Of a stretch of 64,000 bases of DNA, positions 30,810 through 56,462 are shown piece after piece. The position numbers and the translations under genes are program-made. Within the stretch, counting starts at the first letter, position 1; every line of letters begins with the position of its first letter. The DNA is from a virus: positions 1 to 64,000 of IMG/VR virus record IMGVR_UViG_3300046519_000323. One strand, written 5' to 3'. A model generated the notes under the pieces. The model was given only the letters and a program-made list of their open reading frames with translations. It had not been told where the DNA came from and did no database searches.

Positions 30810-30832
30810 TTGTTCTTTTGAACATATGAACA
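30803..30832. promoter_or_regulatory. 8-bp-register hexamer array B (4 units)
   Basis: TGTTCA at TGTTCT tt TGAACA ta TGAACA. Confidence 0.7.
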
Positions 30833-33841: not shown

Positions 33842-34222
33842 TTAATCTCGATCTATACAACGCCAGCCATTCATTTGGACTGCTGAATAAGGTACGCAGT
33901 CATTAAATGCATAGTATTCATACTTAGGCTTGTTTTGATGACTCGATTTTCGTGAACTATATAAAGGTTTTTTTACTGTAACCTTGTTATTTACAGGCTT
34001 TGGGGGGACTTTCGTTATCGACCTGAAAGACGTGCTTTTGAAACTCGAGGCAGTTTGAGTACGACTTAGGCTATTAGCAGCTACGGGACGGCTGACAGGT
34101 GATGACCGACTAGCACTAAATGACGCACGTGATGAACTAACGGCGCTATTTGCTGCTGTTGAGATAACGGCCAAAGGCATAGAAAAGGCTACAAGTAGAC
34201 AAAGGCGTGAAACTCTTAACAT
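33842..34222 (-). CDS. secreted Ser-rich protein
   Basis: Start moved to MLRVSRLCLLVAFSMPLAVISTAANSA (signal peptide); the 21 upstream codons are array C read as protein. Confidence 0.5.
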   Translation of the reverse strand: MLRVSRLCLLVAFSMPLAVISTAANSAVSSSRASFSASRSSPVSRPVAANSLSRTQTASSFKSTSFRSITKVPPKPVNNKVTVKKPLYSSRKSSHQNKPKYEYYAFNDCVPYSAVQMNGWRCIDRD

Positions 34223-34254
34223 AAAAAAATCCCTATCAAAGAAAGCCATAAAAA

Positions 34255-34284
34255 TGAACAAATGTTCAAATAAACATTTGTTCA
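34255..34284. promoter_or_regulatory. 8-bp-register hexamer array C (4 units)
   Basis: TGAACA aa TGTTCA aa TAAACA tt TGTTCA. Confidence 0.7.
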
Positions 34285-40148: not shown

Positions 40149-40417
40149 TTCGAAGCTGCCTTTTCATCAGTGAATAAAACAGCGGTGCTTGGGTTGTTTA
40201 TTAATAAATTAAGCTGTTTTGCTTTCCATAGTTCAGCATATTTTTTAAAACCCTTTTCAGTCTGGCCCATACCAGCTTTACGCAATAAAATCGCACCTTC
40301 ATGCGGTAAATTTTTTAATAAAGCGGCATTACTTACTTTTGAAAGTTCGATATAACGGCGATTATTAATCATATAAATTCTTACCCCTACACCTGTTAAG
40401 TCATTAAATTGCATCAT
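40145..40417 (-). CDS. hypothetical protein
   Basis: 90-aa ORF, 4-nt overlap with the methyltransferase start. Confidence 0.5.
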   Translation of the reverse strand: MMQFNDLTGVGVRIYMINNRRYIELSKVSNAALLKNLPHEGAILLRKAGMGQTEKGFKKYAELWKAKQLNLLINNPSTAVLFTDEKAASK

Positions 40418-40427
40418 TTAAATTTTA

Positions 40428-40457
40428 TGAACATTTGTTCATTTGAACATTTGTTCA
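40428..40457. promoter_or_regulatory. 8-bp-register hexamer array D (4 units)
   Basis: TGAACA tt TGTTCA tt TGAACA tt TGTTCA, perfectly alternating. Confidence 0.75.
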
Positions 40458-43255: not shown

Positions 43256-43363
43256 ATTCCCCCAAAAATCCTACTAATTTTCATTTTGTACGTTTATAGC
43301 ATCTTTTCCGTATTAACACTTAATACTTTTTTGTATCTTTAACCGCAAAAATCGGGAAATTTA

Positions 43364-43840
43364 GAGACAAGTTGTACGGTTTTATGATTTGAAGCCCTCC
43401 CCTCTTCTGTTATTAAGACATGTTGTACGGTTTTAATGGTTTTATCCGCTAAATAAGTTATAAAAAAATGTGCTTTGCCATTAACTTAATCAAAAAAAAG
43501 CCTACTTTTATCGGATAAAGACAACTTGTACGGAATTAAAAACGGCGAGACATGTTGTACGGAAAAGCTATTTAGACCACTTTTAAGACAAAAATTAAGC
43601 TAATACCGTGAAATTAATCATAATTATATGAATTGTGGATAACTATGTTAATAAAAATAGACGTATTGTACGGAGTTAAGACAAGTTGTACGGAATAAGA
43701 GACAAGTTGTACGGTTTCAAATACATGTTGTCGGGTTTAAATGACGTGTTGTCGGGTTTAAATGACACCTCGTACGGAGTTTGAGACATCTTGTACGGGC
43801 GTTAAGACATGTTGTACGGTAGATAAGACAAGTTGTACGG
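43364..43840 (+). repeat. oriV iterons, 13 same-orientation copies of (A/G)AGACAwGTTGTACGG
   Basis: Copies starting near 43364, 43414, 43518, 43547, 43658, 43677, 43699, 43721, 43741, 43762, 43783, 43803, 43824; the last nine form a contiguous 20-22 bp tandem array, three of them degenerate (GTTGTCGGG, CCTCGTACGG). Confidence 0.85.
43634..43642 (-). promoter_or_regulatory. DnaA box (perfect TTATCCACA on the minus strand)
   Basis: TGTGGATAA between the dispersed and tandem iterons. Confidence 0.6.
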
Positions 43841-43885
43841 AGTTTGTGCTATAACACAATGATTTATAAGAATTTATTCAACCTC

Positions 43886-43968
43886 CTAAAACCCTTCTAA
43901 AACTACCTAAAACCCTATCAAAACCTATCTAAAACATTTCTAAAACTTAGTTAAAACATTAATAAAAC
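43886..43968 (+). repeat. eight helically phased yTAAAAC motifs (10-11 bp period)
   Basis: Motif starts at 43886, 43897, 43907, 43918, 43929, 43940, 43951, 43962. Confidence 0.75.
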
Positions 43969-44010
43969 CCTCACTATTTTTTTTAAATTCATTTTTAAAT
44001 TTGTTTCTTT

Positions 44011-44040
44011 AAAAAAAGTATACCTCGATGGGTATACTTT
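44011..44040 (-). terminator. rho-independent terminator
   Basis: GTATACC / GGTATAC hairpin with T7 on the minus strand, after 44072..44260. Confidence 0.7.
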
Positions 44041-44071
44041 GAATTAGAAAACCATAAAAAGAAAATTATAT

Positions 44072-44260
44072 CTATTTCCTTATACTTACAGTCCCCTTTG
44101 CACCAGGATAAAGTTTGATGAGCGAAAGAATAGCTTCGCTGGCATCACAAGCGGTTATATCGCCAGTCTTTGTTATATAAGTACCATCTTTGAAATACTT
44201 CAGATAAAAGCTATATATCTTCTTAGCCTCAATTTCATGAAAATACCCCATTTCTCTCAA
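44072..44260 (-). CDS. hypothetical protein
   Basis: 62-aa ORF, 4-nt overlap with the upstream gene. Confidence 0.45.
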   Translation of the reverse strand: MREMGYFHEIEAKKIYSFYLKYFKDGTYITKTGDITACDASEAILSLIKLYPGAKGTVSIRK

Positions 44261-44664
44261 TTCCCCTTAACGCTTTTTTGACTATCTAAAGTCTGTTCAA
44301 TAACCAACTTATTTCTTTGACGTAAATCGTAAGCATAATATGAATTTTTTCGTTTACAAACTTTGCATCGGCAACCAACAGCATAACCTGTGCGGCCATG
44401 ATTAACGTTACTTGGTAACACGCCACTTTCTTTAAAAGATGTTTTGGCATCTTGAAAGTATTTTTGATTGTTTTTAATAATTATAGGTTTCATCACCGTT
44501 TCATAAAAATTAAGACATTCGTCACAACGACACTTATATGTCGTATATGCGTTTCTAGTACCGTGTTTAGACTGATCACTAACAAATTCACCCGTTAACT
44601 TAAAATGTGTCCGTAATCGTTCTACCGCTTTTCTATGGTTAAGTTTATTTCTTAATTTGCTCAT
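44257..44664 (-). CDS. zinc-binding protein with duplicated GT..aY...CRC..C module
   Basis: 135 aa; HGTRNAYTTYKCRCDECLNF and GRTGYAVGCRCKVCKRK. Confidence 0.5.
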   Translation of the reverse strand: MSKLRNKLNHRKAVERLRTHFKLTGEFVSDQSKHGTRNAYTTYKCRCDECLNFYETVMKPIIIKNNQKYFQDAKTSFKESGVLPSNVNHGRTGYAVGCRCKVCKRKNSYYAYDLRQRNKLVIEQTLDSQKSVKGN

Positions 44665-44678
44665 ATATAACTCTTAAT

Positions 44679-44716
44679 TGTTCAAATGTTCATTTAAACA
44701 TATGTTCAAATGAACA
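44679..44716. promoter_or_regulatory. 8-bp-register hexamer array E (5 units)
   Basis: TGTTCA aa TGTTCA tt TAAACA ta TGTTCA aa TGAACA. Confidence 0.7.
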
Positions 44717-44723
44717 TTTGAGA

Positions 44724-45599
44724 TTAAACAAAATCTGCTTTTAAAGGTGTAATCCCTTTTTCTAACAATAAGTTAAGGGATGTTTCATTCACTGGGGTTT
44801 TGGTATAGATCACTTCAGATAAACCATATCTTAATAAGCCGTTTAAACAATATTGACAAGGGATGTCATCAACAAGCGTACCAACTTCACCAATCTCGGC
44901 TGCAGCATTACCACTACTCAAATTTAAGCGTGCCATTGCAGCGGAATGTACGTAAGGAGTCGGATTATCACGCTCACATAAATGACTTTTGAGCATTCCG
45001 TCATGACGCGAATCAAAACCTAAAGAAATAATTCGATATTTCGAGCCTAGCTTTTGATACACCAGACACGCACCCATAAGACCATAATTTGCATGGGAAC
45101 GTACCCGTCTGAGTACAGACTCAAGCTCGTTTAATGAAAAATATTTATTTCTAATTTGGCTTTCTAATTCATCTTTAATCAAAATGTGTTTATGAAAGCC
45201 TGCATTAACTTCTTGCTCAACATAAATCATACCCGACTTAAGATTTTTAACACCGTATCTCAAGACCACATAACGCGAATCACCTTTAGCGTTACGCATC
45301 TTTCTTAATGAAACAGTAGATGTCTTTAAATATGCTGCTAGGGCTTTCTGACGTCCGCTACCTCGCTGCATCCAGCTTTTAAGACGTTTATGAACACGCA
45401 CCGCTTGTTTTTCTTCGACCTCAATTAATTCCATTGTCTTTCTAATTTCAGACATGAGCGTGTTATCCACTTTATAAGTGAATATCATGGAGTGAAGGGT
45501 TTGACGCTTAATACCCAGCATTCTAGCAAGCTGGGATAAACGGCCACGGCGCCGACAAAGCCATTTATTTAGATTTTTATATTCATTAAGTAAGTTCAT
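44724..45599 (-). CDS. double-HTH protein fused to a dCMP/CMP-deaminase-like fold lacking the catalytic Glu
   Basis: 291 aa; HTH-like LSQLARMLGIKRQTLHSMI and QKALAAYLKTSTVSLRKM; C-part GACLVY..YRIISLGFDS..VHSAAMA..(27 aa)..PCQYC..GLSEVIY parallels GAvIV..rIis.GYNG..HAE..PC..C..GIk.VvY. Confidence 0.5.
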   Translation of the reverse strand: MNLLNEYKNLNKWLCRRRGRLSQLARMLGIKRQTLHSMIFTYKVDNTLMSEIRKTMELIEVEEKQAVRVHKRLKSWMQRGSGRQKALAAYLKTSTVSLRKMRNAKGDSRYVVLRYGVKNLKSGMIYVEQEVNAGFHKHILIKDELESQIRNKYFSLNELESVLRRVRSHANYGLMGACLVYQKLGSKYRIISLGFDSRHDGMLKSHLCERDNPTPYVHSAAMARLNLSSGNAAAEIGEVGTLVDDIPCQYCLNGLLRYGLSEVIYTKTPVNETSLNLLLEKGITPLKADFV

Positions 45600-46420
45600 G
45601 CAGTTAGTCCCGTAAATAAATCTGGTTGCTTTTCAGCTTGAGGGTTAATCCATAAAATTTCTTGCCTGCCCACTGAGCCATTTTGCCCCGAAGCTGCAAC
45701 GGTTTTATTTACTTTCTTCCATCCCAATCGATCATATAAATCATTGTCATAGCCACATAAGATCACTTTACCCTGAACATGCTGAAGTAACTTAATAAGT
45801 TCTTCATGTTGTTCATTAGTCATTTCATGCGTATAAGCATCACCTCCCAATTTACGACAATCATGTAAATAAGGCGGGTCTAAAAAAAATAGTGTGCTGG
45901 GACGATCATGTTCACGAATAACTTGTAAAGCGTCCCTTTTCTCAACCATGACTTTTTTGAAGCGTTCTGCAGCTTGCTCAATTAAGTCACCTTGCCGATT
46001 CCAAATCGTTATAAGATCGGTGCAACCTCGTGCTGTATCTGATCTAAAACCTGTACTACTTTTCGTTGAGCCTGTGCTTCCGAACCCCATTTGTGCTTTA
46101 ACGATTAAACGGCGTGCTCGTTCAATTTCATCGCTAGAAAATTCTTTTGCTGCAATAAATTCACTTCTTGAATAAGGCGTATGATCAATAACATGTTTCA
46201 AAATTTGAGATTTTTTCGGGCAACGTAATACCTTAAAAAAATTTACTATTTCATCATCAATATCGTTATAAACTTCTACCCGGCTAGGCGTCTTTTCTAG
46301 TAAGACTGAAGCCGCACCACCAAATGGCTCAACATAAGTTTCATGGTGTGGGAAAAACGAAATAATCCAGCTTGCAAGACGAAATTTACCGCCATGATAG
46401 CGAAGTAATGGATGTTGCAT
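45596..46420 (-). CDS. dam: DNA N6-adenine methyltransferase (Dam / D12 class)
   Basis: Start moved to MQHPLLRYHGGK (AAGGGGA SD right after the upstream stop); motifs YHGGK, EPFGGAASV, DPPY. Confidence 0.8.
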   Translation of the reverse strand: MQHPLLRYHGGKFRLASWIISFFPHHETYVEPFGGAASVLLEKTPSRVEVYNDIDDEIVNFFKVLRCPKKSQILKHVIDHTPYSRSEFIAAKEFSSDEIERARRLIVKAQMGFGSTGSTKSSTGFRSDTARGCTDLITIWNRQGDLIEQAAERFKKVMVEKRDALQVIREHDRPSTLFFLDPPYLHDCRKLGGDAYTHEMTNEQHEELIKLLQHVQGKVILCGYDNDLYDRLGWKKVNKTVAASGQNGSVGRQEILWINPQAEKQPDLFTGLTA

Positions 46421-46430
46421 TACATTCCCC

Positions 46431-47393
46431 TTATATGACTTCGATAGTGCTGGTTTGGCGATAACTACCCCAATCGCAATTAACAACAAGAATGCGGCCA
46501 CTTTCGAGAAAACGGTCAGCCGATCGGCTTCCTATTAATTTTTCGAGCTCGGTATGAGCAATGTTTGATGTAATTAACGTCGGTAGTCGTTGCTTGTACC
46601 GAGCGTCGAGTATTGTTGTATAGGCTTCAAATAAATATGAACTTGACGCTAGGCTGCCCACGTCATCAATGCATAGGACAGGAACTCTGGAAAGATAACT
46701 GTAAATTTCTTTCGTAGTAGTTCTGCAGTCCTTTTTCCAAGTTTCCTGAATATCATTAATTAGCTGTGCTTCGGTGATGAATACACAACGTAATTTATTT
46801 TCATAATAAATATCGTTCACATGCTTTGTTTTGCACTTCACTGACCGCTTGATGATGTTTTGCAGAAATATACTAGCCATGGCTGTCTTGCCTGCGCCCA
46901 TATCTCCTGACAGAAGTATATTTCTGCTATCCACTGCCGTACCTTTGGCAATAATCGCTTGAAGTTCTTTAATCAGAGCACTGATAATTAATTTTTGTCT
47001 TGGGCTCTTAGTCACATCAAGAGCTTCAAAAGTTTGATGAATACTATTTTTGGGTATTTTAGCCTTTTTATATTCATCAAAGATTCTTTGATTTGTTGCA
47101 TCCGTTAAAGCTTCATAATTCCCTGCAGAATTACACTCGTAACAAGTACCTTCAACAGATTTAGCAATCATTTGAGGTACTTGGATTTGATTAAATCCAT
47201 GAACCTCACAGCCTACGCGGACAGATTGTACGGAAATGTGGTTTTGTATCTCCATTCCTTCTAAACGGTTTTCACGCTCTTTCAATTCTTTATCGCAAAA
47301 AGGGCAATTTGAATCACCACTGTTTTTGAACTTTCGGTAGATACCGTGCGAAGAACAGGTAAATTCATTGTATAAGTCAGCCATTGCACCCAT
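46431..47393 (-). CDS. DnaC/IstB-like AAA+ helicase loader
   Basis: 320 aa; Walker A SGDMGAGKT, Walker B LCIDDVG; N-terminal CxxC pairs. Confidence 0.65.
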   Translation of the reverse strand: MGAMADLYNEFTCSSHGIYRKFKNSGDSNCPFCDKELKERENRLEGMEIQNHISVQSVRVGCEVHGFNQIQVPQMIAKSVEGTCYECNSAGNYEALTDATNQRIFDEYKKAKIPKNSIHQTFEALDVTKSPRQKLIISALIKELQAIIAKGTAVDSRNILLSGDMGAGKTAMASIFLQNIIKRSVKCKTKHVNDIYYENKLRCVFITEAQLINDIQETWKKDCRTTTKEIYSYLSRVPVLCIDDVGSLASSSYLFEAYTTILDARYKQRLPTLITSNIAHTELEKLIGSRSADRFLESGRILVVNCDWGSYRQTSTIEVI

Positions 47394-47396
47394 TTC

Positions 47397-48371
47397 CTAA
47401 AAACCTTCAAAGTTGAATAACTGGTCTTCAGGAACCTCAACCGTTGGCACCTTCTCAGCTCTTTGATCTGAATTATTTAAGATGAACCGGCTAAAATCTT
47501 TAGAAGGTTTTTTAAAAGAGCTGTTTTGAGCAGGTTGGTTGTAATGATCTGAACTTCCTAAGGCTCTCATACGAGCGAAGTGTGCTCTTTGTCCAGCTGG
47601 TGAATGATGGATTTTCAAAAGAAACTTAATCAGATTATTTAAACGTTGATGATCATTCAAATTTTTATATTGATCATGGTTTGCGTTGAAATCAATAAGG
47701 TAGGTATCTAGTTGCTCTTGAGTTTGAATCATTGAGCCTAAACCTGCCATTTGTAAACGACCAAAAAATATTGGTTCTTTCAGTAGAACCCTGTATTTCT
47801 CAAGTAGTTCATTTCTTTTTTCCATGTCCCCTCCCCTATTAATCTTATTAAAATTATTACTTCTTAAATCATTGTATTTATTAGTGGTGGGTTCACCGCT
47901 AACGGAAAAGCCGTTTTCGGCTTCAGCTTTGTTTTCATCAATATCATCAAAATTAAAGCCAAGTTGAGCATCAGAAAGCATTGCTTCTTGAGTATCTTCA
48001 GAAGCTCGATCTTCAGCTTGAGCTATAATTTTTGTGTCTATTGGTGATTCAAAGATTTGATAGACAACTTTGCCAAAAGTGCCATCTTCATTTTTTAACT
48101 GAGTACGTTTGATATACCCAGCTTGTTCAAGACGGTTAAGCATGCCTTGAATTGCATCACGGCCTTCTTTACCCCTTTTTACTAGCGCTTGTATACAAAC
48201 CCTGTGTTTGTCACCCCACGACAACAATTCAACAAGTAAACCTTTATCGGCACGTTTTATATTCGGGTCCCGTAAAAGTTTGTTAGAGAGAACGGTATAA
48301 GGGTTTTCTTTGCTGTGCTCAGCACGATAGATGGTCCTTTGCAGAACATCCAGTACAGCCATATTGGTCAT
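47397..48371 (-). CDS. phage replication initiator (winged-helix, O/DnaD-like)
   Basis: 324 aa; ..PYTVLSNKLLRDPNI..ADKGLLVELLSW..GRDAIQGMLNRLEQAGYI..; precedes the loader gene. Confidence 0.55.
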   Translation of the reverse strand: MTNMAVLDVLQRTIYRAEHSKENPYTVLSNKLLRDPNIKRADKGLLVELLSWGDKHRVCIQALVKRGKEGRDAIQGMLNRLEQAGYIKRTQLKNEDGTFGKVVYQIFESPIDTKIIAQAEDRASEDTQEAMLSDAQLGFNFDDIDENKAEAENGFSVSGEPTTNKYNDLRSNNFNKINRGGDMEKRNELLEKYRVLLKEPIFFGRLQMAGLGSMIQTQEQLDTYLIDFNANHDQYKNLNDHQRLNNLIKFLLKIHHSPAGQRAHFARMRALGSSDHYNQPAQNSSFKKPSKDFSRFILNNSDQRAEKVPTVEVPEDQLFNFEGF

Positions 48372-48388
48372 TGTTAAATCCTAAAAAA

Positions 48389-48670
48389 TTAGTCCCGAAG
48401 AATCTGATCTACTTTTACAGCTCCCTTTGTCAGCTCTTCTAATGTCCGCGCAACGTTGTACGGAACAGGAACCTCCCCCGATAAATAACGACTAATAGTC
48501 CCCTGAGAACAATCAAAAGCTACAGCGGCAGCTTGTTGATTACAGAATTGAATACGCACAGTTGTTTGAAACTTACGTAACTTCTTCTGATCTTCAGCAT
48601 TTAAAGAATCAAATAATTCTTTACGTCGCTGAGCTAATTCAGCTCGTTTTATGTCTTTCAAGTTTTGCAT
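48389..48670 (-). CDS. Cro-like HTH regulator
   Basis: 93 aa; ..CSQGTISRYLSGEVPVP..; divergent from the cI-like gene. Confidence 0.65.
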   Translation of the reverse strand: MQNLKDIKRAELAQRRKELFDSLNAEDQKKLRKFQTTVRIQFCNQQAAAVAFDCSQGTISRYLSGEVPVPYNVARTLEELTKGAVKVDQILRD

Positions 48671-48709
48671 AAATGTATCTGAAATAACTTTTATGTATTA
48701 AAGGATGCA

Positions 48710-48738
48710 ATAATATGCGGAAATGTATAAATGTTCAA
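48710..48738 (-). promoter_or_regulatory. promoter of the cro-replication operon, TTGAAC-17-TATTAT
   Basis: Minus strand TTGAACatttatacatttccgcaTATTAT; spacer/-10 overlapped by the degenerate box TATgCgGAAATGTATA (48714-48729). Confidence 0.55.
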
Positions 48739-48801
48739 TCTAAACGTATAAATGTAAGTACGATTCTGTCTACTGGTATTTGATACGCATAATGCATAAA
48801 A

Positions 48802-48829
48802 TTGACTTGGGTTTATACATTAATGTAAA
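48802..48829 (+). promoter_or_regulatory. putative repressor promoter (TTGACT -35) overlapped by a TATACA-type operator
   Basis: TTGACT at 48802-48807; operator TATACATTAATGTAaA at 48814-48829 covers the spacer and the weak -10 (TGTAAA). Confidence 0.45.
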
Positions 48830-48908
48830 AAGTGTGGTATACGTATCACATTCCAAGAATGTATTGATTCATTTATTAAATTATAATTTTATGACCAGAG
48901 GAACTAAG

Positions 48909-49619
48909 ATGTCGCATAGTCTTAACGAACTTAATAATAAGAATGAAAGTATTGGGGATAGAATCACTCGGCTTTTGCTTGAGAGAAAATCTGATCAATA
49001 TCAATTAGCTAATGAATGTAAAACAACACAAGCGACTATTAGTAGAATTATGAGCGGTAAGGTTAGTAATAGTAAATTTTTGCCAGCTATTGCACAGGCT
49101 CTTAACGTTTCTGTCGGTTATTTATTATTTGGCGGAGAAACAGACGCTCAAGTCGAAGAATACAGTACAGAGCAATTGCGTATACATCAAAATGATTTTA
49201 TGCTTATCCGCAAGTATGAGAACGTATTAGAAAATAATGAAGATACGCATACAAAAAAGAAAGCAGAGGACATGTTGATGTTAAAGAGTTTAATTCCGCC
49301 GGGGTCTACTTCAGAAGATTTACGTTACATTTTGGTTCAAGATCATTCAATGTCTCCGAAGATTCCAATAGACGCAAGGGTTTGTTTTACAACGAAAGAG
49401 ACAACTGTTATCGCTGGTAAAGCATATGCTATTAAGTATGGTTCACTAGACGAACAGATTCGTTATTTATACCCTCAACCTGATGGCGGATTACGTATCC
49501 GTGTAACACCAGAGCAATCAGATGAGTTTCCAGAAATGATCGTTCCGCCCACTGAGATCAAGGAAAAAATCTTTAAAGTGCTTGGTAGGGTTTTTAGTGT
49601 TACAAGCTCTTGGATTTAA
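48909..49619 (+). CDS. cI/LexA-type repressor (HTH + S24 peptidase domain)
   Basis: Start moved to MSHSLNEL (GAGGAA SD); HTH ..QLANECKTTQATISRIMSG..; Ser in DHSMSP and Lys in AGKAY. Confidence 0.75.
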   Translation: MSHSLNELNNKNESIGDRITRLLLERKSDQYQLANECKTTQATISRIMSGKVSNSKFLPAIAQALNVSVGYLLFGGETDAQVEEYSTEQLRIHQNDFMLIRKYENVLENNEDTHTKKKAEDMLMLKSLIPPGSTSEDLRYILVQDHSMSPKIPIDARVCFTTKETTVIAGKAYAIKYGSLDEQIRYLYPQPDGGLRIRVTPEQSDEFPEMIVPPTEIKEKIFKVLGRVFSVTSSWI

Positions 49620-49640
49620 AATAATTTTTATAATCAATCA

Positions 49641-49664
49641 ACGGGCGAAAAAGCCCGTTTTTTA
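49641..49664 (+). terminator. rho-independent terminator after the repressor gene
   Basis: ACGGGC GAAAAA GCCCGT followed by T6. Confidence 0.8.
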
Positions 49665-49775
49665 TTGCCTAATACATTGAAAAATACGAAAAAATACAAT
49701 GTTTTTAATTTTTTTGCGTTTTTTACAAATATTTACTAAAACTCTCGGGTATCTTTTTTACGTTTTTATGCATAC

Positions 49776-49804
49776 TTGCATAATTATATACAGAAGTGTA
49801 TATT
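49776..49804 (+). promoter_or_regulatory. promoter TTGCAT-17-TATATT with embedded operator
   Basis: TATACAGAAGTGTATA (49787-49802) overlaps the spacer and -10. Confidence 0.6.
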
Positions 49805-49834
49805 TTGAATTATTCTTTATGTGGAATTAAAAGC

Positions 49835-50176
49835 ATGCAAAAAATAATCGATGTAAGTGAAAATAACCCTGAAGACCTGAATCATTTAACAGCTTCCCCT
49901 GCATCTCTTAATCAATTAAGAGATAAAGCAAAGTTCATACTCGGCTTAGCTTTGGAAGTTGAGAAGTCTATTCGTAATTTAATGACCGCCCTCTTCGCTA
50001 TTCGTATCGTCCAAATACTTACCTCTTTTGTGATTGTCACTGCCTTGTTCTATGCATTTCTCATTTACGGTGTAGATGCCCAAGAAACAGAAAATCAAGG
50101 TCGCTATCAGGCTAATCAGAAATACATTCAATTGGTTGAGGCTAAAAACCCAGAGGGAATATATATTTCTAAGTAA
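49835..50176 (+). CDS. small membrane protein next to the repressor gene
   Basis: Start moved to MQKIIDV; TM LFAIRIVQILTSFVIVTALFYAFLIYGV. Confidence 0.5.
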   Translation: MQKIIDVSENNPEDLNHLTASPASLNQLRDKAKFILGLALEVEKSIRNLMTALFAIRIVQILTSFVIVTALFYAFLIYGVDAQETENQGRYQANQKYIQLVEAKNPEGIYISK

Positions 50177-50177
50177 A

Positions 50178-50231
50178 TGTTCATTTGAACAAATAAACAA
50201 ATGAACAAATGAACAAATGAACAAATGAATA
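50178..50231. promoter_or_regulatory. 8-bp-register hexamer array F (7 units, mostly direct)
   Basis: TGTTCA tt TGAACA aa TAAACA aa TGAACA aa TGAACA aa TGAACA aa TGAATA, running into a perfect TATAAT (50230-50235). Confidence 0.7.
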
Positions 50232-50250
50232 TAATAGGTTGCATTTTTAT

Positions 50251-50547
50251 ATGGCTCAACGTGAAAGTATAGTTTGTCCGGCTTGTGGCAATAGATTGTT
50301 TTATGCCTTGGAAGTAAGGGTTTTACAAAAGCGTTTAGTAGACCCTAAAACTGGGGCTCTTATGAAGAGAATCTCATCTAATGTTCTACCTACAGAATAT
50401 GAAGAACATTTGTTATGTGAAAGTGAACAATGTCTTTTTGTAATAACCAAAGGCAACAATGATTATCACAATTACATGCATCTTTTTGATAAACCAAATA
50501 CCTCTGATCTTAGTGTTTTCAAAAAAGCTGTATACACAATTTTTTAA
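50251..50547 (+). CDS. hypothetical zinc-ribbon protein
   Basis: Start moved to MAQRESIVCPACGN; second Cys pair CESEQC. Confidence 0.45.
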   Translation: MAQRESIVCPACGNRLFYALEVRVLQKRLVDPKTGALMKRISSNVLPTEYEEHLLCESEQCLFVITKGNNDYHNYMHLFDKPNTSDLSVFKKAVYTIF

Positions 50548-50549
50548 TA

Positions 50550-50587
50550 AGTTCATTTGTTCAAATGAACAAATGTTCAAATAAACA
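50550..50587. promoter_or_regulatory. 8-bp-register hexamer array G (5 units)
   Basis: aGTTCA tt TGTTCA aa TGAACA aa TGTTCA aa TAAACA. Confidence 0.7.
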
Positions 50588-50645
50588 TTAACGGTACATT
50601 CTATTTTATTTAATCTGCAGGTTTGAGATTGCTCAAATAGATTGG

Positions 50646-50691
50646 TGAACATACAAACATTTGAACAAATGAACATTTGTTCAAAGGAACA
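50646..50691. promoter_or_regulatory. 8-bp-register hexamer array H (6 units)
   Basis: TGAACA ta cAAACA tt TGAACA aa TGAACA tt TGTTCA aa gGAACA; 17 nt before the erf start. Confidence 0.7.
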
Positions 50692-50707
50692 TTAGATAGG
50701 TGATTTT

Positions 50708-51439
50708 ATGCAAACTGGATTTAACTTAAATAATAATCTTGCTAGTGACTTACGTGGTGTACAGGTTGTACATGCAATTGCTGCGGTTCATAAAGTTCTT
50801 GTAAAAATGGGTATAGCTAAATCTCGCCGTACAAATAGCACAAACACAAAATTTACGAACTATAATTTTCGTAGTATTGATGATATGTATAACGTCATTT
50901 CGCCTTTGATGGCCGAGAATGGACTTTTATGTATTCCCACTGTAAAAGATACCAAAATTACAGAAAATAAAAATCAACACGGCGGTATTGCCCGTCATGC
51001 AGTTGTCACGGTTTCATATAATTTTATTAGTGTTGATGATGCTTCGATCATTACTGCAGAAATGGTGGGGGAAGCAATTGACACTGCTGATAAAGCCATA
51101 AGTAAAGCTTTAAGTATGGCTCAAAAAGGGCTTTTTGAGCAGGCATTCTCTATACCGACAAGACCTTTTACGAATGATGTTTCTCAACAATCGTTCCAGC
51201 GTGAACAAACTCAATTACCGAATAACGCACCAAACCCTTTACGCAATTTAAATGCTCCTGACTATCATGAATTAGATGCTTTTATAAATTTATTGGGCTC
51301 TATTGGTTGTAGCTTTGAACGTTTTCTTAAACAACGTAGCATCACAGAAAATCAAATTACCCGTGAAGTGCTGAAACAAGAAACAATTAATATCGAGAAA
51401 TATTTGAACCAACAAGGTGCGCCAACCCACCAATACTAA
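50708..51439 (+). CDS. erf: ERF-family single-strand annealing protein
   Basis: 243 aa; ..NYNFRSIDDMYNVISPLMAENGL.. and ..DTADKAISKALSMAQKGLFEQAFSIPT follow the ERF pattern (DKa..KA.s.A.K....F.IPt). Confidence 0.65.
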   Translation: MQTGFNLNNNLASDLRGVQVVHAIAAVHKVLVKMGIAKSRRTNSTNTKFTNYNFRSIDDMYNVISPLMAENGLLCIPTVKDTKITENKNQHGGIARHAVVTVSYNFISVDDASIITAEMVGEAIDTADKAISKALSMAQKGLFEQAFSIPTRPFTNDVSQQSFQREQTQLPNNAPNPLRNLNAPDYHELDAFINLLGSIGCSFERFLKQRSITENQITREVLKQETINIEKYLNQQGAPTHQY

Positions 51440-51450
51440 CCTTTCTTTAA

Positions 51451-51520
51451 TGAACATTTGTTCAAATGAACAAATGTTCATTTGATTAAAAGAACGTTTG
51501 AACTATTGAACATATGAAGT
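51451..51520. promoter_or_regulatory. 8-bp-register hexamer array I (9 units), candidate parS/operator
   Basis: TGAACA TGTTCA TGAACA TGTTCA TGATTA aGAACg TGAACt TGAACA TGAAgt at 51451, 459, 467, 475, 483, 491, 499, 507, 515. Confidence 0.7.
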
Positions 51521-51533
51521 TAATCGGTACAAT
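51506..51533 (+). promoter_or_regulatory. parA promoter TTGAAC-16-TACAAT
   Basis: The -35 is unit 8 of array I. Confidence 0.55.
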
Positions 51534-51664
51534 ACCTGAAAATACTTCTTTTAAAGGGCAGTGCCTTACTTCTCTTAGATATTAAACATATTCGTTCTGG
51601 CCCGATCTACTTGTAAATAATGATCTAAAGCCGAACTATCATATAAATAAATTGGATTTAAGAT

Positions 51665-52303
51665 ATGACGACAAAATATATCTCAACGCTTCAGCTGAAG
51701 GGCGGGGCGGGTAAAACTACAATCGCAAGTAATCTTATTGGTTATTTCCTTTCTAAAAATAAAAAAGTCTTGGGCGTTGATGCCGATATGCAACAAGGTA
51801 CTTTGCATGCCTGGTCAAAACTTTTTAAACACCCTAAATTTGAATGTGTAGGGGTTAACAGTCTTGAAGAGTTAATTTCTGTTCTTCGTGAGGCTCAAGA
51901 AAAATTTGATATCGTTATTACTGACCTACCTCCGCGGCTAGCTGATATTGCACGATCAAGTTTAGTTTTTAGTGATGTCGTTTTGATTCCCGTTGCTATT
52001 TCATCGCCTGATGTTTGGGCTGCTATGGACTTAACAAAACTTATTGAAGCTGCCAAAAGCGAAAGCGATAACGCAAAGGTTCGCATGGTATGGAATAGGT
52101 TTAAACCAACTAAACGCAAAATTGAGGCTAAAGAAGAAGTAAAGCAGCTTCTAGGGCACGATGAAATTAAACAATATATTTCTGACTATGTAGCTTATTC
52201 CGATGTGCTGGGTTTAGGTACTTGGGTGGGGGAACATAATCACGAAAAAGCTAAAACAGAATTTTTGGCCTTTGCCAAAGAAGTAGAAAAGTTAATTAAG
52301 TGA
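51665..52303 (+). CDS. parA: ParA-type partition ATPase
   Basis: 212 aa; deviant Walker A KGGAGKTT near the N-terminus. Confidence 0.85.
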   Translation: MTTKYISTLQLKGGAGKTTIASNLIGYFLSKNKKVLGVDADMQQGTLHAWSKLFKHPKFECVGVNSLEELISVLREAQEKFDIVITDLPPRLADIARSSLVFSDVVLIPVAISSPDVWAAMDLTKLIEAAKSESDNAKVRMVWNRFKPTKRKIEAKEEVKQLLGHDEIKQYISDYVAYSDVLGLGTWVGEHNHEKAKTEFLAFAKEVEKLIK

Positions 52304-52316
52304 AACGGTAATTTTT

Positions 52317-52583
52317 ATGACTAAAGCAAAGATGAATTTTGTAAAACCTACAGGTGAAGAAAAACCTCAAAATGACCGTTTTGGGGCTGCAGTTGAGTTT
52401 GCAAAGGCTTCAAAAGAAGTTGTTGAAGGCTCTAAAGATGAAGCGCGTGAAAATTGGGATTGCCCCAATAATTTACGTAAAGAGCTTAAGCAGTTTGTTG
52501 CAGGTTCGACGCGTTTCGCAACTAAGAAAGAGTTTTTAACACAGTGTTTAATTGATGGATTAAAGAACTATAAAGGTCAATGA
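52317..52583 (+). CDS. small partition adaptor, ParG/omega-like (predicted RHH C-terminus)
   Basis: 88 aa directly after parA; flexible basic/acidic N-part, then ENWDCP (strand) NNLRKELKQFVAGS (helix) TRFATKKEFLTQCLIDGLKNY (helix). Confidence 0.45.
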   Translation: MTKAKMNFVKPTGEEKPQNDRFGAAVEFAKASKEVVEGSKDEARENWDCPNNLRKELKQFVAGSTRFATKKEFLTQCLIDGLKNYKGQ

Positions 52584-53263
52584 AAAAGGCTATCGGTTAT
52601 GTCCGTGTTAGTACGGAAAAACAAGTAAGCGAAGGTGTTTCTATTGACGCACAGGTTGAGCGTATTAAAGCATGGGCGCTAATTAATGATTATGAACTTG
52701 TCGAGGTTTACTTTGATGAGGGTATTTCTGGTGCGACCTTTTCTAAACGTGAAGGCATTAATAAAGCTTTAGCGAATGTTGAAAAAGGTATGGCATTTGT
52801 TTGCTATAGCTTAAGTCGTGTAAGTCGTCATCTTGAAGATACCTTGATGATTGGCAAAATTATTCAGAATGCTGGCGCCGATCTTGTAAGCCTTACTGAG
52901 CAAATTGATACAACAACTGCTTCAGGCAAAATGATTTTTAATCTCTTTGGGGTTTTGAATCAATTTGAACGAGATCAGGTTGCTGAGCGTACACGTACGG
53001 CCATGCAATTCTTGAAAGCTAATAATAAAGCTTATACTCATCCGCCATATGGCTTTGATCGTCGTGGCGATGACTTTGTTGAAAATGAGGCTGAGAAACG
53101 AGTCATTGAATTGATGCTTGAGCTTAGGCAAAAAGGTTACGGTCACCGAAAAATAGCAACCCATCTTAATAAAAATGCAATTTATGCAAAAAATGGCGGG
53201 TTGTGGCATCCAAAAACCGTAAAAGGTGTATTAGATCGTATTGAAGGTGTTAAAACAGAATGA
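52580..53263 (+). CDS. serine recombinase (probable multimer resolvase)
   Basis: 227 aa; catalytic YVRVSTEKQ; C-part PPYGFDRRGDDFVENEAEKRVIELM..GYGHRKIATHLN like the start of the large-serine-recombinase 'recombinase' domain. Confidence 0.75.
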   Translation: MKKAIGYVRVSTEKQVSEGVSIDAQVERIKAWALINDYELVEVYFDEGISGATFSKREGINKALANVEKGMAFVCYSLSRVSRHLEDTLMIGKIIQNAGADLVSLTEQIDTTTASGKMIFNLFGVLNQFERDQVAERTRTAMQFLKANNKAYTHPPYGFDRRGDDFVENEAEKRVIELMLELRQKGYGHRKIATHLNKNAIYAKNGGLWHPKTVKGVLDRIEGVKTE

Positions 53264-53352
53264 TTAATACGGAAATTATCAAACATAGATTTTAAATACA
53301 TTTTATGTATAAATTAATTGACAATTATGCATATAGCCTAAGATTCTATGTA

Positions 53353-53374
53353 TGTTCAAATGAACATTTGAACA
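53353..53374. promoter_or_regulatory. 8-bp-register hexamer array J (3 units)
   Basis: TGTTCA aa TGAACA tt TGAACA in the convergent gap between the recombinase and RHH genes. Confidence 0.6.
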
Positions 53375-53404
53375 TCGTAATCAAGCGTTGATATTTTAGA
53401 AAAT

Positions 53405-53430
53405 TAAAGGCTCTTATTTAAGAGCCTTTA
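53405..53430. terminator. hairpin terminator overlapping the stop of 53414..53599
   Basis: TAAAGGCTCTT / AAGAGCCTTTA 11-bp stem. Confidence 0.6.
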
Positions 53431-53599
53431 ATAATTCGTTAAGTGCTTCGTCACGCGACTTTAAATTGTGTTCTTTCTTATAGTTCTCGATTAATTCCAG
53501 ACTATCTTTAGTTAGCCAGAAATCTTTTCTTTCAAAACCTTTTGCTAACATTTCTTCGCGTTGTTTGGCTTTTCGTTGAGCTGCTGTAAGAGCCATCAT
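53414..53599 (-). CDS. ribbon-helix-helix DNA-binding protein
   Basis: 61 aa; FERKDFWLTKD (strand) SLELIENYKKEH (helix) KSRDEALNELLKAL (helix); start overlaps the upstream stop (TAATG). Confidence 0.55.
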   Translation of the reverse strand: MMALTAAQRKAKQREEMLAKGFERKDFWLTKDSLELIENYKKEHNLKSRDEALNELLKALK

Positions 53600-54048
53600 T
53601 ATTCCTCAGTTTGTTCTAGGATTGATTCACGTTTGAACATTGGGATAATAAAAACCTCTTGATCATTTTCGATATCTTTATAACCATCAAAGCCCATATT
53701 TGTAGCGCATTCACCACGGCGAGCTATAACGAAATCATTTGTACCTTTTTCAGCAAACCAATGGTTCCAAACGCTATCGGAACTATTTAAAAGATTTTTG
53801 GCCGTTTCAGATTCAACTTCAAATTCTTCTACAATTACGTTAATCAATTCTTCGTCATAAAGATCACAAGCTTCAACAAAACGCATATTTTCGGCATTGA
53901 TTAAATACTGAATAGGTTCAGCTGTATTTTCTTCATCGTCGTCAACTGGCACTTCATAAACATCTTTTGAGAAAAATAAGCAATCATCATAATTGCCAGA
54001 CATTGTAATTTTTTCAATTTTGCATGGGCTGGTATGAAATAGTTTCAT
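53599..54048 (-). CDS. strongly acidic small protein, candidate anti-defence effector
   Basis: 149 aa; D/E-rich (..VPVDDDEENTAEP.., ..DLYDEELINVIVEEFEVESE..); AGAGGAA SD; first gene of a 2-gene operon. Confidence 0.35.
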   Translation of the reverse strand: MKLFHTSPCKIEKITMSGNYDDCLFFSKDVYEVPVDDDEENTAEPIQYLINAENMRFVEACDLYDEELINVIVEEFEVESETAKNLLNSSDSVWNHWFAEKGTNDFVIARRGECATNMGFDGYKDIENDQEVFIIPMFKRESILEQTEE

Positions 54049-54072
54049 TTTAGATTCCTCTGTTATGGCCCT

Positions 54073-54101
54073 ATCTTAATTCGTGAGCGGTCACGTTGCA
54101 A
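54073..54101 (-). promoter_or_regulatory. promoter TTGCAA-17-TAAGAT with palindrome in the spacer
   Basis: Minus strand TTGCAAcgtgaccgctcacgaatTAAGAT; CGTGA-N4-TCACG at 54082-54095. Confidence 0.6.
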
Positions 54102-54235
54102 GAGAATTTACTAATATTTTTGCTTTTCGTTCTAAATTACTTTAAATGATCAAAATATAGTTTTTAATAACTTTTTCTGATTATTATGCCTGATATACAT
54201 GAAACGTATGTTGATACATAGTGTGTATATTGCTA

Positions 54236-54271
54236 AAACGTGAACCACCCATTCCGGTGGTTCACGTTTTA
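54236..54271. terminator. strong rho-independent terminator (bidirectional look)
   Basis: 12-bp stem ACGTGAACCACC / GGTGGTTCACGT flanked by A4 and T4. Confidence 0.8.
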
Positions 54272-54308
54272 AAATGAATGAGAAGGGTACTTGTACTGAA
54301 AAAATGCG

Positions 54309-56462
54309 TTATAGAAAAATTTCAGGTGGGTACGGCGTGTTGTCTGTTACAGGTTCAAAGTACGTTTCGTTAAGAAAAAAGCCGTTTGGTGCTATTTCTT
54401 TGTCTATGGTCATTGAGTCAAACATTACCTGAGGATATGCCCAAACAAGCTGCTTCATAACGCCCACATCGTTATTATTAACTTTATCGCCTAAAATCCG
54501 TTGCCATATTGGAGGCCGATATTCTTTAGTATCATCAAACCCATATAAATATGCGATTGCTGAATCTGGAACAAAGCCAACTAAATAAGCAACTTTATCG
54601 GCTGGATAATCTAATTCTTCGAGTGGAATTTCATTTACCGCTTGCTTTGTTAAATCAAGACGACCCTCAAGAATCCAATCATATGCCTCCGTCATAATAT
54701 AGTCGAAGTTAGGATATTTATAATGTTCGCTAGGGTAGTTAATATACGTCGCTAGGCTTTCATTATGTGTTCTGATCGATGGAAAAAATATAAGAGGGCA
54801 GACCTTTGCACTCGGATAAATCTGTTTAATCATAGTCCGAATATCACGGCAAGTCTGGCCTAATTTATTTCTTAACCATGTTTTAAACTCATCGTACGGC
54901 GTACCAGTTTTATTAATTGCTTCATATATAGTACCTAAATCGGGTGCATATAAGCCTGTATCAGCATTAAAAGCTAGTCGAGTTTGATAATCATAAACAC
55001 ACGGTAGATTAGTCGCGGTATTAAACCACCACCACGGCTCACCGATCTGCATATTTACCTCACATCCGCCTGTCACCATTGTTGCAGCGAACTCTTTAAA
55101 TGCTTTGTGTAAATAGGCTAGGGCATTAGCATGACATAGGCTGAAGAAATAACTTGGGGGTTCATAACCAGTACGGCCAAGTGCGTCGTTAATGTCGCGT
55201 TGTGCCCAAAACTCATTACCAGCTTGAGAATACATTTCAAAGCTCACGCTGAAAACAGGGGTGAACCCTGCATCGTTTAAGGCTTTTGCATATGCTTCAT
55301 GCCATCGAATTGTGCAAGGGTTTACCACATCCTCATTGGTTACTAATGTGTCGGGTATTTGCCATTTGTTTATAGCTCCATTCCAATACATTTCAGGGTA
55401 GTGAGACATACCACAATAATGATTAATAAAGCCCTGGTACCCAAGTGCTTGCATATTGTCTACAAGGCGTTGAGGGTTCAAATCGTAATGATCGTCGAAG
55501 CTGGTACACATACCCAAATCATGCACAGGTACTTGAACAACTTTAGTAAGCAGCTTGGCCCCAGTGCCGGAAACTTGGGAATTAGTGATTCTTAAGTAGC
55601 CTACTTCCCCCGCTTCTAATGGATAAGGTGCAACTTCTTCAGAAGTTGGCAAGCCGTCTGCCCCTAGAACCTTATTTCCTACGTATGAACTTGTAATACC
55701 AGCGAAAAACATTTGAGTAATTTTATTTACTGGAAATGGTTGATCTGCGTAAAAACCTGCCTTAATTTCATCAAAATTAATGCTGATTGTAGAGGTATGG
55801 CCGACGGGGAAATCAGCATAATTGTATAAAGCAACATATGCCGTTTTTTCTTCACCCTCTTCAATATATTTAATCGTCAGGGTTATGGCTTTTTGCTCGT
55901 CATTTAGTGCCGGCATTGACGGCGAGAGCTCAATATCAAATTCCCATATCAAACCTGAATAATTGAAATTCGATTCATATGCTAATAATTTGTGATCTTT
56001 TTTGTCCTCAGTATCCCATATGATTCCTACTAAATCGTTGCTCATACGTGATTTGAACAAAACCTCGAACCCATTATCGAAGCTTGTAGTTGTAAATGAC
56101 ATTGTTTGAGGACCGTCAACCCGCCAATACTTAGGGTCGAAGCGATCAATAAATTTGGTACCTATCCTTAATTGAGGGGTAGTTTGACTGGCTGAGTCAG
56201 TTATTCGTAGAACCTGCAAGCTGTTTATGCCCGTGTTTAAAGCATCTTGAACGGCAGCATAATCTAAATTTCTTGGGTCATAGCCGAGCACGGTACGTAT
56301 GTTTTTAGCAGTTATATTCATTGGCCTATCAAAACGGCCACGTCTGAATTTACCTACATAAACATCATTTATCAGTTGTGAGTCCTTGGAACTAGAAGAG
56401 TCTCTAGTTCCTTGGTACTGAATACCCGCCTCAGGCCCTAATAGGGTCGTTTTGTGTGGCAT
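54309..56462 (-). CDS. tail-associated protein, family member 2, with large C-terminal TIM-barrel/glycosidase-like region
   Basis: 717 aa; N-terminus MPHKTTLLGPEAGIQYQGTRD..VGKFRRGRFDRPMNITAKNIRTVLGYDPRNLDYAAVQDALNTGINSLQVLRI; C-part with FSVSFEMY and IGEPWWWF strand-end Glu candidates (inference). Confidence 0.5.
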   Translation of the reverse strand: MPHKTTLLGPEAGIQYQGTRDSSSSKDSQLINDVYVGKFRRGRFDRPMNITAKNIRTVLGYDPRNLDYAAVQDALNTGINSLQVLRITDSASQTTPQLRIGTKFIDRFDPKYWRVDGPQTMSFTTTSFDNGFEVLFKSRMSNDLVGIIWDTEDKKDHKLLAYESNFNYSGLIWEFDIELSPSMPALNDEQKAITLTIKYIEEGEEKTAYVALYNYADFPVGHTSTISINFDEIKAGFYADQPFPVNKITQMFFAGITSSYVGNKVLGADGLPTSEEVAPYPLEAGEVGYLRITNSQVSGTGAKLLTKVVQVPVHDLGMCTSFDDHYDLNPQRLVDNMQALGYQGFINHYCGMSHYPEMYWNGAINKWQIPDTLVTNEDVVNPCTIRWHEAYAKALNDAGFTPVFSVSFEMYSQAGNEFWAQRDINDALGRTGYEPPSYFFSLCHANALAYLHKAFKEFAATMVTGGCEVNMQIGEPWWWFNTATNLPCVYDYQTRLAFNADTGLYAPDLGTIYEAINKTGTPYDEFKTWLRNKLGQTCRDIRTMIKQIYPSAKVCPLIFFPSIRTHNESLATYINYPSEHYKYPNFDYIMTEAYDWILEGRLDLTKQAVNEIPLEELDYPADKVAYLVGFVPDSAIAYLYGFDDTKEYRPPIWQRILGDKVNNNDVGVMKQLVWAYPQVMFDSMTIDKEIAPNGFFLNETYFEPVTDNTPYPPEIFL

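Follow-up and report, generated by a model that had tools for sequence, protein, structure and literature searches.

A candidate type Ib partition cassette and dispersed 8-bp repeat arrays with a predicted common reader in an Acinetobacter-type phage-plasmid

We analysed a stretch of 64,000 nucleotides of viral DNA (positions 1 to 64,000 of IMG/VR record IMGVR_UViG_3300046519_000323, hereafter the window) around a locus at positions 51451–52583, where an array of short repeats is followed by a parA gene and by a small gene for a protein of 88 amino acids (aa). Very probably, this locus is a par cassette of type Ib in which the small protein, predicted to carry a C-terminal ribbon-helix-helix (RHH) domain, reads the array in front of parA and the arrays of the same unit found elsewhere in the window. 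Whether the dispersed arrays regulate transcription is an evenly balanced question, and we place the combined statement, in which the locus is a type Ib par cassette, its small protein reads the arrays and the dispersed arrays regulate transcription, at a probability of roughly 0.6. The parts of this proposal that concern partition, the RHH fold and a shared reader are well supported computationally; the description of the small protein as a 'master repressor' is plausible. A first-pass annotation had read the locus as a candidate type Ib par system, and we recovered each defining element of such a system that can be read from sequence: a short ParF-like ATPase, a small downstream gene whose product has a predicted RHH domain with a tail, and repeats lying on the promoter.

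A nine-unit array overlaps a putative parA promoter

51451–51520, unstranded: nine-unit array of TGAACAww/TGTTCAww, candidate centromere and operator of the par operon
51506–51533, plus strand: sigma-70-like promoter TTGAAC-16-TACAAT, with its −35 within array unit 8, matching the consensus at 9/12 positions
51534–51664, plus strand: parA 5′ leader of 131 nt, poorly conserved, no Rfam match
51665–52303, plus strand: parA, 212 aa, deviant-Walker-A ATPase, ParF-like, type Ib (Pfam AAA_31/CbiA; PDB ParF)
52317–52583, plus strand: 88-aa candidate centromere-binding protein and regulator with a predicted C-terminal RHH domain (alignment, AlphaFold 2 model, fold matches)

The segment 51451–51520 contains nine hexamers in a single 8-bp register, and reads, unit by unit, TGAACAtt, TGTTCAaa, TGAACAaa, TGTTCAtt, TGATTAaa, AGAACGtt, TGAACTat, TGAACAta and TGAAGT. 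Five of these hexamers are perfect copies of TGAACA or TGTTCA, one has one mismatch and three have two. TGAACA and TGTTCA are reverse complements, and the units of the array occur in both orientations with 2-bp A/T spacers between them. The nine register-locked units reported in the first-pass annotation are therefore present, and the same can be said of the promoter match that it assigned to unit 8: the hexamer of this unit together with the T before it gives TTGAAC, and TACAAT follows 16 bases on. Since matches to the promoter consensus were not enriched in the region (17 found versus 23 expected from shuffles), the parA promoter is plausible without statistical support. It is conserved in a related locus (L012), whose small protein is 85% identical to that of the window; between the two there is almost no change from the first unit up to and including the −10, and divergence is seen at the end of the upstream ERF gene and over most of the leader. 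The array had also been described as the largest in the window. It has the longest span (70 bp versus 62 and 54 bp), but it ties with the array at 50178–50231 for the number of perfect units, at five each.

Between the array and parA, several relatives carry a Cys-rich open reading frame (ORF) of ~48 aa (MSKLNKPVKH...C.C..C), found at L001:3786–3935, in L002 and L032, and at L013:9214–9345, where it is in frame with parA. In the window and in L012 just a short degenerate remnant of this ORF is present, which in the leader of the window takes up 51514–51585 (23 codons).

The gene next after the array encodes a ParA with the KGGAGKTT motif, as had been noted. It reads LQLKGGAGKTT from residue 9 and, at 212 aa and with no N-terminal helix-turn-helix (HTH), is a short ParF-like ATPase of type Ib. 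Its best matches in the PDB are 4dzz (ParF of TP228) and the ParA chain of 5u1g, an entry that we take to be the TP228 ParF-ParG complex, with alignment over the full length and E = 3e-10. Against the NCBIfam model ParA_partition it scores 128 bits, under the equivalog cutoff of 180 bits. The ORF of the 88-aa protein begins 13 bp past the parA stop codon.

A megablast search with 50700–53300 against phage and plasmid collections gave no match, and relatives were found at the protein level only. ParA matches three Acinetobacter plasmids of 71–79 kb, namely pGFJ2 of A. soli (68% identity), p1_010030 of A. defluvii (67%) and p1_010055 of Acinetobacter sp. WCHA55 (45%), all of which have terminase, tail, lysozyme and Rep genes and share a block comprising a CI-like repressor, ERF, ParA and the small ORF, with or without a recombinase. 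In all, we assembled 19 loci with parA and the small gene from PLSDB, GTDB genomes, IMG/VR, metagenomes and assemblies. The small gene follows parA in 19/19 of them and an array lies directly upstream of parA in 18/19, with ParA identity down to ~45% among the PLSDB relatives. The proposed position of the array on the parA promoter is upheld by this recurrence, as well as by the overlap with TTGAAC-16-TACAAT in the window.

The small protein is predicted to have a flexible tail and an RHH domain

Searches with the 88-aa protein returned no Pfam family at E ≤0.1 and no match in NCBIfam or in the sequences of the PDB. When 20 members of its family were compared with Pfam at E ≤1, no RHH, ParG or omega-type match appeared, and the 11 weak hits were to unrelated families, each in a single member. 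Aligning the family with hhalign to a ParG sequence entered by hand gave a probability of 0.2%. By Pfam profile, hhalign and PDB search, the protein was thus not placed in the ParG sequence family, and within PHROGs it falls in phrog_26557, a family of unknown function.

While a word-indexed protein search gave only two close homologues, an exhaustive HMMER search gave 93 hits, which include ~20 genuine homologues of 82–172 aa. About 70 hits were discarded, being long proteins of low complexity or with coiled coils whose match is confined to the acidic/alanine-rich linker. In the family alignment, K10-P11 at the N-terminus is invariant, F22 and A29 are near-invariant, and R21 is kept in most sequences. 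A variable low-complexity linker separates this N-terminal peptide from a conserved C-domain of ~45 aa with the pattern RENFDxPxxLxxExxxFxAxSxxFKxKREFLxQCxxDGLxKY.

An AlphaFold 2 model built with the family alignment has a short helix at residues 21–31, an extended segment at ~40–50, and helices at 51–63 and 70–85. Its confidence (pLDDT) is ~87 in the C-domain and 73.7 overall, and the tail is of low confidence except for helix 21–31. When the monomer model was compared with the PDB using Foldseek, the best matches were RHH domains (the ParD/PrpA antitoxins, ParD1 and YiiF), with a TM-score of up to 0.72 over 47 columns. The strand-helix-helix C-terminus with a disordered tail, which had been read from the sequence in the first-pass annotation, is therefore also what the model predicts, although the boundaries given there were slightly off: the strand is placed at ~42–50 (DEARENWDCP) and the helices at 51–63 and 70–85.

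Two natural homologues, P0009 (L022:1615–2133) and P0016 (L028:6001–6480), contain the C-domain twice per chain. In the model of P0009, strand-helix-helix occurs twice and both strands are called as paired, with the strand at residues 65–73 aligning with residues 42–50 of the window protein. The P0009 model matches chains E/F/G of the F-plasmid relaxosome with probability 1.0, E = 9e-4 and 17% identity, and we infer that these chains are three copies of TraY. TraY is a monomer that holds the whole RHH-dimer fold in one polypeptide (PMC12117103). The prediction for P0009 is thus an RHH dimer within one chain, as in F TraY, and the description of the 88-aa protein as a flexible tail with a C-terminal RHH domain is well supported by structure prediction.

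Ten arrays are dispersed over at least 33 kb

We scanned the window in a register-aware manner for hexamers within one mismatch of TGAACA or TGTTCA in an 8-bp register, requiring at least three units, and compared the outcome with 50 Markov-1 randomised sequences made from the dinucleotide transitions of the window. The window has ten arrays, whereas the randomised sequences average 0.44 and none of them has more than 2. They start at 20460, 30803, 34255, 40428, 44679, 50178, 50550, 50630, 51451 and 53353, so that, with the parA array included in the count, the scan agrees with the earlier observation that the unit recurs at nine other loci. Tandem Repeats Finder independently reported rows of period 8 or period 16 at most of these places. 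In addition to the parA array, the arrays (all unstranded) are:

20460–20489: four units, 10 bp upstream of the minus-strand gene 19820–20449, abutting its GAGG ribosome-binding site
30803–30832: four units, in the gap between the minus-strand genes 30848–31789 and 28581–30608 (tail-associated, phrog_6922)
34255–34284: four units, ~9 bp upstream of minus-strand gene 33842–34245, whose probable start codon is the ATG at 34245
40428–40457: four perfect units, ~11 bp upstream of the minus-strand gene 40145–40417
44679–44716: five units, 14 bp upstream of the minus-strand gene 44257–44664
50178–50231: seven units, mostly direct TGAACAaa, 8 bp before ORF 50239–50547
50550–50587: five units, directly past the stop of ORF 50239–50547
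50630–50691: array ending 17 bp ahead of the start of the ERF recombinase (50708), conserved in L012
53353–53374: three units, downstream of the par/recombinase operon, between convergent genes

The window is ~90% coding, and 9/10 arrays lie wholly outside ORFs, the remaining one touching an ORF only in its mechanical 5′ extension. The arrays, 404 bp in total, hold 36 of the window's 82 TGAACA/TGTTCA hexamers. They spread over at least 33 kb, and seven of them end within 8–17 bp of a start codon, that of the next gene on whichever strand it lies. Because the array at 53353–53374 sits downstream of the par/recombinase operon, the par cassette is flanked by arrays; equivalent arrays downstream of the small gene are present in L012 and L013. 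In the comparison with L012, the arrays starting at 50178, 50550 and 50630 stand out as conserved islands: the variable gene 50239–50547 has been replaced there and the surrounding arrays have been kept.

The array unit and residue 46 of the small protein change together

Across the related loci, the unit of the array varies, and so do residues 44–49 in the predicted strand of the small protein:

TGAACA/TGTTCA, often with TAAACA (12 loci): RENWDC, RVNWDC (two loci), RENWDT, RENFDI, RENFDL (two loci), RENFDM, RENFDV, RQNFDC, RTNFDC, RENFEM
TGATCA (L013): RESWEC
TGAGCA/TGCTCA with TATACA (L017): RQSYDC
ATCATA/TATGAT or AATGAyTT (4 loci): REVFDA (two loci), PEAFDV, GEVFNA

In 12/12 TGAACA loci, R44 and N46 are unchanged, and residue 48 is D in 11 and E in one, while positions 45, 47 and 49 show free variation. 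Such an alternation would be expected of an RHH ribbon with residues 44, 46 and 48 on its DNA side and residues 45, 47 and 49 turned to the core. In a neighbour-joining tree of ParA, TGAACA is found across the whole tree and the other three unit types appear as three separate departures, so that TGAACA is, as far as the tree indicates, the ancestral unit, with three independent departures from it. Each of the three switches coincides with a change at residue 46, from N to S or to V/A. The sole locus outside this table is L021, in which the family member (L021:1081–1232) lies on a very AT-rich contig of 2.2 kb that has only TGTATA/TATACA-like motifs and a perfect 26-bp palindrome.

The dispersed arrays were found to follow the array at parA. 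In the A. defluvii plasmid p1_010030, TGAACA arrays are absent, and ATCATA arrays, at least eight in number, take the corresponding places between genes, those upstream of ERF and of parA among them; L013 carries four TGATCA arrays within 20 kb; and pGFJ2 and p1_010055 have eight and nine TGAACA-type arrays, respectively. That the dispersed arrays switch together with the parA array suggests that one plasmid-encoded reader serves all the arrays of a plasmid. Wherever a locus has an array, parA and the small gene are there too; none of the other candidate linked genes examined is so constant, the CI-like, Cro-like, ERF and recombinase genes each being absent from some loci.

The spacing of the units also differs between clades. 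It is strictly 8 bp in the clade of the window and 9 bp in L030, and one clade has inverted pairs every 17 bp. Such differences suggest that an inverted pair bound by two dimers may be the working module and that there may be some flexibility in the packing of adjacent dimers. Spacing variants were seen across L003, L010, L011, L014, L018 and L030 and in p1_010055 (L008 and L009), and the array upstream of parA in L022 consists of eight units (AATGAyTT) in a single orientation.

Neighbouring genes and the replicon

52580–53263, plus strand: serine recombinase, resolvase-type (Pfam Resolvase, E = 5e-37)
50708–51439: ERF-family recombinase, upstream of the parA array
48909–49619: CI-like repressor with HTH_3 and peptidase-S24 domains
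48389–48670: Cro-like HTH gene, 93 aa
41993–43255, minus strand: RepM/RepE-like initiator

The serine recombinase is the probable multimer-resolution partner of the cassette. Its start codon overlaps the stop codon of the small ORF (ATGA, 52580–52583), which suggests translational coupling of the partition and multimer-resolution functions. The order parA, small gene, recombinase recurs in most, though not all, of the relatives, and in pGFJ2 no recombinase lies beside the cassette. As for the genes further upstream, the CI-like gene (HTH_3 with S24, of the LexA-type, self-cleaving kind) is divergent from the gene for the 93-aa Cro-like HTH protein, together making an immunity-like module at 48389–49619.

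Turning to replication, about eight 21-bp iterons (TTGTACGG...AAGACA) occupy 43666–43841, upstream of the RepM/RepE-like initiator, and are followed by AT-rich repeats of 11/22 bp at 43880–43969; the whole of 43666–43969 is presumably the plasmid replication origin. The possibility that the TGAACA arrays are themselves Rep iterons was ruled out, since the iterons are 21-bp repeats unrelated to them. A search of 43000–54500 with Rfam gave no match. Elsewhere, the minus-strand ORF 4265–4918 contains a tandem duplication of 114 bp at 4626–4839 (1.9 copies, 92% identical). A 61-aa ORF on the minus strand at 53414–53599 has an RHH-like pattern (ERKDFWLT / KDSLELIENYKKEH / SRDEALNELLKAL) and belongs to phrog_27670, a family without known function; directly past its 3′ end comes an array.

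Given that its relatives carry phage genes together with Rep, and that the window has a RepM/RepE-like initiator with iterons, the window is an Acinetobacter-type phage-plasmid. The 'AB' group of Acinetobacter phage-plasmids was considered as its home, and the description of that group (~110 kb, with ParB and RecA) is unlike this family of ~70–85 kb.

Discussion

From these sequence patterns and models, we infer binding, stoichiometry, repression, ATPase activation and partition by the cassette in the following way. The 88-aa protein would dimerise via its C-terminal RHH domain, with one dimer on each 8-bp unit (a 6-bp TGAACA box in either orientation plus the 2-bp A/T spacer), and the two-stranded ribbon, with R44, N46 and D48 turned toward the DNA, would enter the major groove. 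Dimers would coat an array cooperatively. On 51451–51520 the resulting complex would be the centromere and would recruit ParA, activating it through the conserved N-terminal peptide (K10-P11 ... R21-F22); since the −35 of the parA promoter lies under units 7–9, this complex would double as the autorepressor of the par operon. The protein would in addition occupy the nine other arrays, at the starts of replication/recombination and virion-region operons, where it would most likely act as a plasmid-wide transcriptional regulator, probably a repressor, and/or provide extra centromere sites. Since these arrays abut gene starts, modulation of transcription is their most likely role.

The closest parallel is the ParF-ParG system of TP228, in which the 4-bp boxes bound by ParG alternate with AT spacers of 4 bp, giving a period of 8 bp, lie in both orientations and take one dimer each, and in which the boxes serve as both operator and centromere and ParG's N-terminal tail carries an arginine-finger-like motif (PMC3130281). 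As in TP228, the order in the window is repeats, parA and small gene, ParF is the nearest solved relative of ParA, an RHH domain at the C-terminus after a flexible N-tail is predicted for the small protein, and boxes with A/T spacers at an 8-bp period, both direct and inverted, lie upstream of the operon and overlap its promoter. The systems differ in that the box here is 6 bp with a 2-bp spacer instead of 4 + 4, that ParG sites keep to the region upstream of parFG while the arrays here, about ten in number, are scattered over at least 33 kb, and that the host replicon here is a phage-plasmid.

In its wider use of arrays, the cassette is closer to omega of pSM19035, an RHH centromere-binding protein that recognises 7-bp non-palindromic repeats in either orientation with one dimer per repeat; omega parS arrays have 7–10 units and overlap the copS, delta and omega promoters, activation of the ATPase takes at least four contiguous repeats, and the arrays coordinate partition, copy number and toxin-antitoxin control (PMC9499535). 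Here too, a small protein with a predicted RHH fold would act on short repeats in either orientation, with arrays at several gene starts. However, the period here is 8 bp and not 7, omega belongs to Firmicutes and has no sequence relationship to the 88-aa protein, and ParA here is ParF-like, not delta-like. Furthermore, omega controls three plasmid-maintenance promoters, whereas the arrays described here also front the ERF, DNA-metabolism and virion-region operons of a temperate phage.

Partition proteins with sites scattered over the replicon are also represented by N15 Sop and RK2 KorB. In N15, SopB affects the expression of phage genes, and KorB is a repressor of many operons of RK2. As with the global regulators omega and KorB, candidate sites lie beyond the par operon in the window, in the form of nine further intergenic arrays, and the same pattern is seen in pGFJ2, p1_010055 and p1_010030. 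N15 Sop and KorB are type Ia systems with large HTH ParB proteins and palindromic single sites, in contrast to the small predicted RHH protein and tandem arrays described here. In N15, there are four separate inverted-repeat (IR) centromere sites (PMC7205306). The tandem homologues P0009 and P0016, predicted as two RHH repeats per chain, resemble F TraY; this is a likeness of fold only, as TraY is a relaxosome accessory protein and not a partition protein.

Several observations weigh against the proposal. The 88-aa family has no sequence similarity to ParG, to omega or to any RHH model of Pfam or NCBIfam, the RHH assignment rests on AlphaFold 2 models of moderate confidence (mean pLDDT 70–74), and the RHH fold matches of the monomer are not statistically significant (E ≥2), as the query is a 45-residue half-domain. 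The covariation of unit and residue 46 amounts to three independent events among heteroimmune plasmids, which differ in many genes at once, and L021, with the strand RTNFDC, has no recognisable TGAACA array upstream of parA. With respect to transcription, several arrays lie 8–17 bp from a start codon and leave little room for a conventional promoter downstream, so that the regulatory logic (occlusion, roadblock or activation) is ambiguous, and the array at 53353 lies between convergent genes.

The last of these points fits an alternative in which the par assignment is right and the nine other arrays are extra centromere or loading sites (multi-parS) with no meaningful transcriptional role, since a promoter is unexpected between convergent genes. 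Its parallels would be N15, with four dispersed IR sites, and plasmid pB171, with parC sites both upstream and downstream. At least four contiguous units suffice for ParA activation in omega while most of the arrays here have 4–7, and promoter-like matches are not enriched. We nevertheless regard this alternative as unlikely: the arrays are not freely placed but are pushed against the downstream start codon or ribosome-binding site (8–17 bp in 7 cases), the parA array overlaps a conserved −35, and arrays of centromere-binding proteins on promoters repress in both of the studied analogues, ParG and omega.

Two other alternatives take the arrays away from the 88-aa protein. If the arrays were operators of the CI-like (48909–49619) or Cro-like (48389–48670) repressor, with the parA operon as one more member of the regulon and the 88-aa protein binding something else or nothing, this would suit the inverted pairs TGTTCAwwTGAACA, which form 14-bp palindromes of the kind bound by HTH dimers, the 17-bp spacing seen in one clade, and the presence of the CI-like and Cro-like genes 2–3 kb away in most loci; phage-plasmids of the P1 type, moreover, scatter repressor operators over the genome. 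We consider this reading very improbable. The CI helix QSTISKI occurs with TGAACA (L001, L003) and with ATCATA (L002), and QPTISRI with TGATCA (L013) and with TGAACA (L026); with identical recognition helices (Q-x-T-I-S-R/K-I) beside different units, and no arrays in its own control region, the CI-like protein was rejected as the reader. The Cro-like HTH was rejected because it is diverse among TGAACA loci and nearly unchanged between the window (TGAACA) and L013 (TGATCA). The cI-cro intergenic regions lack arrays and, for all unit types, share another motif, GCATAA/TGCGTAA; L017, on a different plasmid backbone, has the array, parA and the small gene, with no CI-like ORF found; and long direct 8-bp runs (50178–50231; L022) are atypical of HTH-dimer operators. 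About as slight are the prospects of some other plasmid-encoded or host factor as the reader, such as the 61-aa ORF 53414–53599 or a nucleoid or metallo-regulator, with the proximity to parA being coincidental. In its favour, this RHH-looking ORF lies beside an array, an annotated Arc-family gene of A. defluvii has an array at its 5′ end, and AT-rich hexamer arrays superficially resemble Fur-type boxes. Yet the unit varies between plasmids of one genus and all the sites of a plasmid switch together, which implies a plasmid-encoded reader, and no candidate linked gene examined, apart from parA and the small gene, keeps company with the array throughout the array-bearing loci. The 61-aa ORF and the A. 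defluvii Arc-family protein were each rejected as readers, having no homologue in the other three complete plasmids, and so was the serine recombinase (with arrays as res sites), as pGFJ2 has arrays without an adjacent recombinase and ten dispersed sites are unlike res.

Returning to the proposal that the small protein of a type Ib par cassette reads all the arrays, parts of it have precedents. An RHH centromere-binding protein with arrays over several promoters is already known in omega of pSM19035 (PMC9499535), and dispersed centromeres are already known in the phage-plasmid N15, making the idea put forward in the first-pass annotation less new than it implied. A literature search found no paper describing the 88-aa family or the arrays. 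What is new here is an unannotated family of predicted RHH centromere-binding proteins, about ten arrays per phage-plasmid, and a natural series of specificity switches. This series couples a single residue of the strand to the bases at the centre of the box, adds differing spacings (8, 9 and 8 + 9 bp) and single-chain tandem variants, and constitutes a data set for the rules of RHH-DNA recognition and for the design of orthogonal repressor/operator or plasmid-partition pairs. In addition, the arrays offer a simple sequence marker with which to type the incompatibility and immunity groups of these elements.

A more speculative extension, which we hold to be doubtful, is that the RHH protein and its 8-bp arrays set partition specificity (incompatibility) and a second, CI-independent control of the prophage (immunity) at once. 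If this were true, a change at residue 46 (N46 to S or V/A) together with about ten rewritten arrays would create a new incompatibility-plus-immunity type in one step and, because the arrays would titrate an autoregulated protein, plasmid copy number would feed into the lysis-lysogeny decision. If the main proposal holds, the new RHH family, for which there is no Pfam or NCBIfam model and which PHROGs lists as of unknown function, would be the partition adaptor of the 70–85-kb Acinetobacter phage-plasmids. The use of a centromere-binding protein as a global regulator would then extend from Firmicute inc18 plasmids to a Gram-negative temperate phage-plasmid, and such regulation would reach operons well beyond plasmid maintenance.

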